Shown: piece after piece, positions 63,086-64,000 of the stretch
Numbering within the stretch: position 1 is the first letter of the stretch
Layout of the letters: every line of letters starts with the position of its first letter
Source: a virus
Taxonomy: Duplodnaviria; Heunggongvirae; Uroviricota; Caudoviricetes
Virus record (IMG/VR): IMGVR_UViG_2877948078_000003
DNA: 64,000 nucleotides
Strand: one strand, 5' to 3'
Program-made: the position numbers and the translations under genes
Notes under the pieces: generated by a model
Told to the model about the DNA's origin: nothing
The model's input: the letters and a program-made list of their open reading frames with translations, nothing else
Databases searched by the model: none

Positions 63086-64000
63086 GCTGATTATTATGAC
63101 GTCCAAATGGGTTCAACTATCATCAATGCCCGGAAACTTTACCGTTAAAGTTTCCGGTGGTACAGCGGCATTTCTTGAGGCTCCCTTTCCTCCGGCTGAA
63201 GCGAAAGGAGGAATGACATTTGCTGACTGTCTCATCAGTTTTAATACACGGGATTGCCTGTGGGTAAGACCAGTATCCGGTGATCCGAGTGTGGAAATTA
63301 CCGGAGCGGGTATTGGTGCGGTCATTCCGTTAAGTGCTGATGTTGCCGGTACTGCTGAACCGTCAGACTGGGATAATGCTGAAACACATACCCGTCCGTC
63401 AGGAAATGAAACGGCTTCCAGCTCCCCTTCCTGGTATTACGTGGTGGTTCTTGCTGGTCAGTCAAACGGTATGGCTTACGGTGAAGGTCTGCCACTGCCG
63501 GAGACATATGACCGCCCCGAACCGCGTATTATGCAGTTAGCCCGTCGCAGTACAGTCACGCCGGGAGGTAAAGCCTGTCAGTATAACGACATCATTCTGG
63601 CCGACCACTGTCTGCATGATGTGCAGGATATGAGTGGAAAAAATCACCCGAAAGCGGATGTGGCTAAAGGGCAATATGGCACCGTGAGTCAGGGGCTTCA
63701 CATTGCCAAAAAACTGCTGCCGTTTATTCCGGCAGATGCGGGGATTCTGCTGGTTCCCTGCTGTCGTGGCGGTTCTGCATTCACGGCGGGTGCTGACGGC
63801 ACGTACAGTGACAGCACGGGTGCTTCAGAGGACTCAGCCCGCTGGGGTGTGGATAAGCCGCTGTATAAGGACTTAATCAGCCGGACAAAAGCGGCACTGG
63901 CGAAGAACCCGAAAAACCGCCTGCTTGCTGTGGTGTGGATGCAGGGCGAGTTTGATATTGATGCGAAGCCGACGGAGCATTCTGCGCTGTTTCTGGCGAT
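63086..64000 (+). CDS. SASA/SGNH-type esterase-like protein (partial; runs off the window end)
   Basis: Open frame of ~305 codons from ATG 63086 with no stop; GQSN and WMQGE motifs as in sialate O-acetylesterase-type domains; not in the ORF track because it is incomplete. Confidence 0.6.

Follow-up and report, generated by a model that had tools for sequence, protein, structure and literature searches.

The window analysed here, i.e. the whole 64,000-nucleotide stretch of the virus record IMGVR_UViG_2877948078_000003, ends inside an open reading frame (ORF) that appears to be the beginning of a gene for a NanS-p-type sialate O-acetylesterase carried by a Mu-like prophage. The frame starts on the plus strand with the ATG at 63096 and stays open over 301 codons up to the last nucleotide at 64000, the chance of such a length without any stop being ~(61/64)^301, i.e. 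roughly 6e-7. It is preceded by an in-frame TAA (63063–63065) and an AGG Shine-Dalgarno sequence (63084–63086), both situated in a 99-bp spacer (62997–63095, plus strand) that was delimited by reading the sequence and examined by a consensus scan. Directly upstream, on the same strand, the ORF list gives the gene for a gin-type serine DNA invertase of 186 residues (62436–62996), which shares 74.8% nucleotide identity with the gin of Mu and whose identical copy in a public contig matches the Pfam families Resolvase and HTH_7. The original prediction, made from the letters alone, was right in describing a frame that follows gin on the same strand, is open to the window end and was missed by the ORF list, the last because frames running off an end are left out of that list; it set the start at 63086, however, whereas the start is the ATG at 63096 and the length 301 codons.

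Within the window, the deduced product can be divided into three segments, all of them encoded on the plus strand. Residues 1–80 (63096–63335) make up an N-terminal domain, predicted as a small all-beta, cupin-like barrel and distinct from DUF1737; residues 81–112 (63336–63431) form a linker rich in Pro, Ser and Thr and ending with SSSPS, delimited by the predicted local distance difference test score (pLDDT) and the blastn boundaries; and residues 113–301 (63432–64000) cover the first 189 residues of a SASA/SGNH catalytic domain, as seen from the Pfam SASA match and the alignment with the structure 3PT5. Both motifs named in the prediction are present: GQSN (residues 121–124; 63456–63467) represents the SGNH block I with the presumed nucleophile Ser123, and WMQGE (residues 281–285; 63936–63950) is the equivalent of block III. 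The conserved glycine segment CCRGG located between them (residues 222–226; 63759–63773) we take to be block II, judging from general knowledge of the SGNH family. All three are invariant in the comparison with two NanS-p proteins of Shiga toxin (Stx) phages.

The rest of the gene was obtained from the contig CP031892.1 (locus L023), which was reached by a look-up of the tail-fibre assembly protein of the window and is identical to the window positions 53431–64000 at 10570 of 10570 bases. In this contig the frame continues to 680 codons, the stop being placed at the window-equivalent position 65138, and no early stop follows the window end. The motifs GQSN, CCRGG, WMQGE and RASH are found in its product at residues 121, 222, 281 and 406, respectively, so that the block motifs of the family are all present, the first three in the window and RASH in the identical contig; a published description of NanS and NanS-p treats RASH/RSSH as their fourth SGNH block (PMC10462455). 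A gene of the same length, 680 codons, occurs in Escherichia coli OkiPb01677 (L001), which is 99.6% identical to the 3′ end of the window and where the gene is annotated as a "DUF6645 domain-containing protein". Intact esterase genes of 669–689 codons were seen in all eight related loci as well as in the further relatives examined.

Identity and relatives of the esterase

Already the 301-residue fragment alone matches the Pfam family SASA (PF03629) with an E-value of 3.4e-10 and 40.4 bits, the cut-off being 24.8 bits, and the full-length protein additionally matches DUF6645 (PF20350; E-value 2.4e-73). Compared with solved structures, the full-length protein matches the E. coli NanS (YjhS; PDB 3PT5) over residues 104–428 with an E-value of 7e-118, and the C-terminal domain of a phage NanS-p (PDB 6YP6) over residues 460–675 with an E-value of 5.6e-117. 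The proposal of a SASA/SGNH-type esterase is thus borne out, and the carbohydrate-binding domain, for which a search had been suggested, is the DUF6645 domain encoded beyond the window. On the other hand, the idea of a depolymerase finds no support, because the catalytic domain is that of a de-O-acetylase close to NanS and not of a glycan-cleaving enzyme.

Alignment with the NanS-p of VT2-Sakai and Stx2_14040 revealed 72–78% protein identity and invariance of all SGNH blocks. The coding DNA of the catalytic domain is 78–84% identical to that of Stx-phage nanS-p, the values for the whole shared block being 78–85%. Purifying selection acts on both esterase domains, the ratio of non-synonymous to synonymous substitution rates (dN/dS) being 0.125 in the catalytic and 0.17 in the C-terminal one. 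A translated search of phage genomes yielded 340 records covering at least 80% of the esterase protein, nearly all of them Stx-converting phages, in which the gene is annotated as yjhS or SASA esterase and lies between the stx and the lysis genes. The NanS-p alleles of strains EDL933 and O104:H4 have been reviewed as active esterases of 5-N-acetyl-9-O-acetylneuraminic acid (Neu5,9Ac2) that de-O-acetylate mucin glycans and support growth on Neu5,9Ac2 (PMC8065619). On the grounds of these domain and motif matches, together with the activity of the reviewed alleles, the frame in the window is probably (with a probability of about 0.75) the start of a NanS-p-type sialic-acid O-acetylesterase serving as accessory cargo of the prophage, the product of which most likely removes 9-O-acetyl groups from mucin sialic acids.

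The closest comparison is offered by the NanS-p proteins of lambdoid phages, such as 933W (L0105/z1466), VT2-Sakai (orf42) and phi24B (vb_24B_21/gp84). Like the protein studied here, they combine the SASA/SGNH and DUF6645 domains, keep GQSN, WMQGE and RASH at the overall identity given above, are followed by genes for DUF1378 and DUF826 and reside in prophages carried by E. coli that produce Shiga toxin (STEC). They differ in beginning with DUF1737, an alpha/beta capsid anchor of ~54 residues, whereas the protein studied here begins with an unrelated all-beta domain of ~80 residues and a linker; in their carrier, a lambdoid phage instead of a transposable Mu-like myovirus; and in their site, located from Q/stx to the S lysis genes instead of from gin to com/mom. 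The chromosomal NanS shares the same motifs over the region matched by 3PT5, but it is, in that structure, a single-domain protein of 337 residues, lacking both the N-terminal barrel and the C-terminal lectin domain.

The gene is the same as ECs_4993 of the prophage Sp18 in E. coli O157:H7 Sakai, found there at the same locus, although annotated only as a "hypothetical protein". Identity between the two amounts to 99–100% in the N-terminal domain and linker and to 96% in the catalytic domain, yet drops to 85% in the C-terminal lectin domain (L023 9666–11705 versus L016 4501–6540), which, in view of the 96–100% in the remaining protein, suggests that the lectin domain has been exchanged between nanS-p alleles. 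No report on ECs4993 was found in a full-text search of the literature, nor one connecting NanS-p with Sp18; likewise, no description of the Mu-borne allele and its N-terminal swap was found in the searchable literature, two key NanS papers excepted. Nor did the literature searches turn up proteomic or structural data on particles of the Sp18 type.

The N-terminal domain

The first ~112 residues (63096–63431) have no homology to lambdoid nanS-p; at the nucleotide level, as judged by blastn, the homology begins at codon ~111–113 and stops a few codons ahead of the esterase stop. Residues 1–108 have no Pfam match up to an E-value of 10, while residues 3–53 of the VT2-Sakai protein match DUF1737 at 1.3e-19 in the same search. 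DUF1737, consisting of a helix and three strands, has been reported to hold the phi24B NanS-p orthologue on the capsid, the decorating protein being processed afterwards (bioRxiv 10.64898/2026.04.10.717836). The structure prediction for the protein studied here gave the all-beta barrel for residues 1–80, with the pLDDT falling below 50 past residue 82, and neither the sequence nor the model, in which the N-terminus is a beta-strand, revealed a hydrophobic stretch resembling a signal peptide. Structure searches with this domain retrieved just generic cupins and uncharacterised phage proteins, with no known particle-binding domain among them.

When the N-terminus was used as the query of a protein search, nothing beyond fragments of the same protein was retrieved at first, and a single-sequence scan of GTDB species genomes gave no match, whereas a scan of 1.84 billion representative proteins yielded four relatives. 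A profile search then revealed ~20 clusters of standalone proteins of 77–80 residues from Salmonella prophages, as well as a Salmonella protein with the domain again fused to a SASA esterase; a weak match to phrog_4772 is consistent with the Salmonella relatives. The domain of the window is 58% identical to that of the 689-residue allele and 36% identical to that of the Salmonella-type Mu-like esterase, and its pN of 0.25 versus a pS of 0.79, the latter being saturated, points to purifying selection.

Every copy of the domain examined belongs to a myovirus prophage and lies immediately after a tail fibre, tail-fibre assembly or invertase module. Concerning its partners, it is fused to SASA and lectin domains in Mu-like prophages (L006 and others); in L007 (1264–3627) it forms a separate ORF followed by a separate SASA esterase ORF; in L010–L012 the standalone domain precedes an ILEI-domain protein and DUF1353 (L010 7001–8179); and in L013–L015 it precedes a 332-residue protein and a second, DUF4376 assembly-like gene (L013 7001–9391). 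In a related prophage (L008), the esterase occupies the same slot without the domain. The standalone form thus looks like the conserved leader of a variable cargo slot. It should be noted that the genes following the standalone domain in Salmonella myovirus prophages are themselves usually followed by DUF1353. Translational read-through from the standalone ORF into the next gene was considered and rejected, since a normal stop as well as a ribosome-binding site and an ATG are found in each of the three cases, one of which is out of frame. A 77-residue ORF of Kuttervirus (phage PhaxI; L031 6965–7726) shares 27% identity with the Salmonella standalone protein at an E-value of 2e-4, a match too weak to build on; that ORF, directly upstream of a "tail needle knob" gene, occurs in ~129 large virulent phages of Salmonella and E. 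coli.

Taken together, the catalytic and lectin parts are held in common with the lambdoid nanS-p, and the N-terminal module is one of the myovirus lineage.

Genomic setting between gin and com

The gene is carried by a transposable prophage of the Sp18 type, Sp18 itself being annotated as Mu-like in Sakai; this prophage is recognised by the Pfam families Phage_Mu_Gp45, GP46, Gp48, DNA_circ_N, Com and Mom and by a 5-bp target duplication. The ORFs 29728–31818 and 31890–32822 are taken to be the MuA and MuB homologues, by size and position only. A distance of 94 bp separates the gin stop from the com start in Mu, whereas in the phage type of the window it amounts to 3.37 kb, because the block of esterase, DUF1378 and DUF826 genes has been inserted between them; a small minus-strand ORF is also present in this interval. 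Downstream of it come com and mom, preceded by a region rich in GATC, with Com (PF10122) and Mom (PF25680) being present in L023, L001, Sakai, L017, L024 and L028, and the Mu mom aligning at 72% to L001 12193–12821. The esterase was originally placed at the mom position of Mu; mom has not been replaced, since com and mom are still present ~3.3 kb downstream, and the identical contig as well as all the relatives examined keep com with either mom or a C5 methyltransferase gene. The reading of the gene as accessory cargo, on the other hand, fits the Mu-like prophage well.

The order gin–esterase–DUF1378–DUF826–com–mom (or the C5 methyltransferase gene) is conserved in all the Mu-like relatives examined, including those with the 689-residue allele, only 65–67% identical, and those with the 669-residue allele, for which the assembly index lists more than 1,900 blocks. 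Since the order is kept in such divergent alleles, the arrangement is an old one in this phage lineage. Of 5426 complete E. coli genomes, 205 contain the coding DNA of the N-terminal part, strains of O157, O26 and O111 being numerous among them.

The window also contains a second, broken nanS-p. It is the 3′ remnant of a lambdoid gene of the DUF1737 type on the minus strand (28044–28505), encoding the C-terminal 153 residues (502–654) and 99% identical to the intact 654-residue esterase of the strain STEC17-190. The remnant adjoins the left end of the Mu-like prophage at 28507, the initial 502 codons of the gene are found past the right end of the Mu-like prophage (L023 15463–13958), and a 5-bp ACTCC duplication is found at both junctions. 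From this arrangement it follows that the Mu-like phage transposed into the lambdoid nanS-p and, along with its own allele, caused the loss of another; Sp18 in Sakai, in contrast, sits in sorM. Of the two sialate esterase genes in the window, one is thus broken and the other intact, and because of insertions of this kind, counting alleles by homology alone can mislead.

Several further features of the region deserve mention. In several similar Mu-like prophages, the mom following com is replaced by a gene for a 350-residue C5 cytosine DNA methyltransferase (PF00145; L018–L022 2376–3428, L020 13094–14146, L026 10792–11844), the phage of the window itself, as seen in L023, keeping mom. The small minus-strand ORF between DUF826 and com (L001 11390–11855; ECs_4996 in Sakai) is intact in Sakai, frameshifted in OkiPb01677 and uncalled in L023. 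Upstream of gin, the invertible tail-fibre segment (60430–62373) is in the opposite orientation to that of OkiPb01677 (L001 6014–7481) and Sakai. It contains a single tail-fibre assembly gene (61431–61952), which is co-oriented with the fibre gene here and antisense when inverted, and its arms (61009–61208 and 62174–62373) are 200-nucleotide inverted repeats, 73% complementary, lying inside the alternative fibre C-termini. In this orientation, a terminator-like hairpin with a T-run (61956–61978) comes right after the assembly gene and would stop the late tail transcript ahead of gin. Finally, the interval between terminase and lysis genes of the lambdoid prophage harbours a convergent pair of genes (24441–25508, plus strand; 25450–26070, minus strand), the PADLOC matches of which are PD-Lambda-2_C/"beta" (E-value 4e-32) and "cll" (E-value 2e-31) and the RefSeq names "beta family protein" and "sce7726 family protein"; the pair 24441–26070 is probably an anti-phage defence cargo.

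Proposed function and alternative explanations

The enzyme consists of three modules, i.e. the predicted beta-barrel of residues 1–80 with its flexible linker, the SGNH/SASA esterase of residues 113–430 and the lectin-like jelly-roll (DUF6645) of residues 460–680, the second in part and the third wholly encoded beyond the window end. Ser123 of GQSN and His409 of RASH would hydrolyse the 9-O-acetyl ester of Neu5,9Ac2, either free or on mucin glycans, on which the C-terminal lectin-like domain would keep the enzyme; the N-acetylneuraminic acid (Neu5Ac) released would then be open to catabolism by E. coli, which is where we infer a benefit to the host. As the N-terminus reads as a folded beta structure and not as a signal peptide, the substrate is probably reached through phage lysis, the enzyme meeting it when the Mu-like phage lyses a part of the population, as has been proposed for the NanS-p of Stx phages. 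The prophage Sp18 has been reported as genetically intact, its DNA being packaged spontaneously, and as not inducible by mitomycin (PMC2669165); with spontaneous packaging, lysis of a subpopulation would allow release of the cytoplasmic enzyme.

Some points weigh against this interpretation. The identical public contig, and not the window, is the source of the block V histidine and the lectin domain; the substrate specificity is deduced from the 72–78% protein identity to alleles from phages related to those assayed; and no promoter was identified upstream, the consensus scan of the spacer 62997–63095 having revealed no good sigma-70 promoter. The same scan gave no intrinsic terminator. Concerning expression, the Mu late promoters Plys, PI, PP and Pmom were compared with the equivalent regions of the phage of the window, in which the regions upstream of I and com share a CCGCCCTGA-type motif resembling the Mu late promoters. 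The spacer between gin and the esterase has no convincing motif of the Mu C-dependent late type, a weak AATAA...CCCT likeness having the wrong spacing. It is possible that the esterase is expressed by read-through from gin or from an unrecognised promoter.

The esterase chemistry is compatible with a different place of action, namely the virion, so that only where and for whom the enzyme works would change. The N-terminal barrel might attach the esterase to the particle of the Mu-like phage, either at its capsid or close to the tail fibres, as a myovirus counterpart of the DUF1737 anchor of phi24B gp84, and the phage would then bind or strip O-acetylated sialomucin in mucus. The phi24B orthologue, a capsid decoration protein by virtue of DUF1737 (bioRxiv 10.64898/2026.04.10.717836), provides the precedent, and several properties of the N-terminal domain argue in the same direction: it is itself folded and stands exactly where DUF1737 would be, the swap boundary coinciding with the beginning of the catalytic domain; among the copies examined it is confined to myovirus prophages, immediately behind the module for fibre, assembly or invertase; purifying selection acts on it; and its partners are glycan-related, i.e. 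SASA with lectin, the ILEI domain, or the 332-residue protein with the second assembly-like gene. However, the protein is without DUF1737, no known virion protein resembling the domain was found, and the Salmonella standalone ORFs end with ordinary stops, the next gene having its own ribosome-binding site. Display on the particle is therefore considered as a tentative possibility. Somewhat more speculative still is its extension to the whole group, in which the phrog_4772-like domain might be a myovirus-specific docking or presentation module, marking a swappable post-fibre cargo slot and displaying glycan-binding or glycan-modifying proteins on the particle; in such a slot there would be the SASA esterase with lectin here and ILEI-type lectins or other proteins in the Salmonella prophages.

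It seems improbable that the enzyme modifies a receptor, i.e. that it de-O-acetylates the O-antigen or capsule of the host, aiding adsorption or blocking superinfection by lysogenic conversion, although the gene adjoins the host-range module and the idea has been raised for NanS-p in a review (PMC8065619). NanS, which is sialate-specific, is a very near relative of the catalytic domain, as are alleles for which activity on Neu5,9Ac2 and mucin has been reported, and with its N-terminus predicted as a beta-strand of a folded domain instead of a signal peptide, the protein could not reach the lysogen's own surface. SGNH esterase tailspikes do exist in virulent phages, G7C gp63.1 acting on O-antigen being an example, and they resemble the present gene in combining an SGNH-type esterase with an N-terminal module and a part that binds carbohydrate and in lying beside host-range genes. 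No trimeric tailspike features were seen in the protein studied here, however, the structure searches with its N-terminal domain gave no sequence or fold link to such tailspikes, and its catalytic domain is a close relative of NanS. Least likely of all, and only very remotely so, is the view that the gene is in decay, recombination with a lambdoid prophage having left behind a pseudogene or a fragment without function. A truly disrupted nanS-p does occur in the same window (28044–28505), and fragmented or frameshifted copies of a related allele are present in the databases (P0004, P0006), but decay is refuted for the identical contig by its intact 680 codons, and the gene is intact, with 669–689 residues, in all eight related and further loci, with the SGNH blocks kept and dN/dS well below 1.

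The preferred reading thus remains a NanS-p-type sialate O-acetylesterase released by lysis. Its kind is already known, and public genomes have long contained the gene under no better annotation than "sialate O-acetylesterase"; the new point is the first ~112 residues standing in place of DUF1737. NanS-p esterases are thought to help Shiga-toxin E. coli to feed on the O-acetylated sialic acids of mucin. The Mu-borne copy adds to the tallies of sialate esterase gene dosage a nanS-p allele that had not been counted and that occurs in ~4% of the complete E. coli genomes, mostly STEC. A transposable Mu-like phage in whose esterase a different, conserved N-terminal domain precedes the NanS-p catalytic and lectin modules amounts to a natural domain-swap experiment on whether this is an enzyme for the bacterium or an enzyme on the virion. 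If the barrel did prove to be a docking module, Mu-like phages and Stx podoviruses would have independently given the same sialate esterase different, phage-type-specific virion anchors, and NanS-p would be primarily a device for the interaction of phages with mucus rather than a gene of bacterial nutrition.
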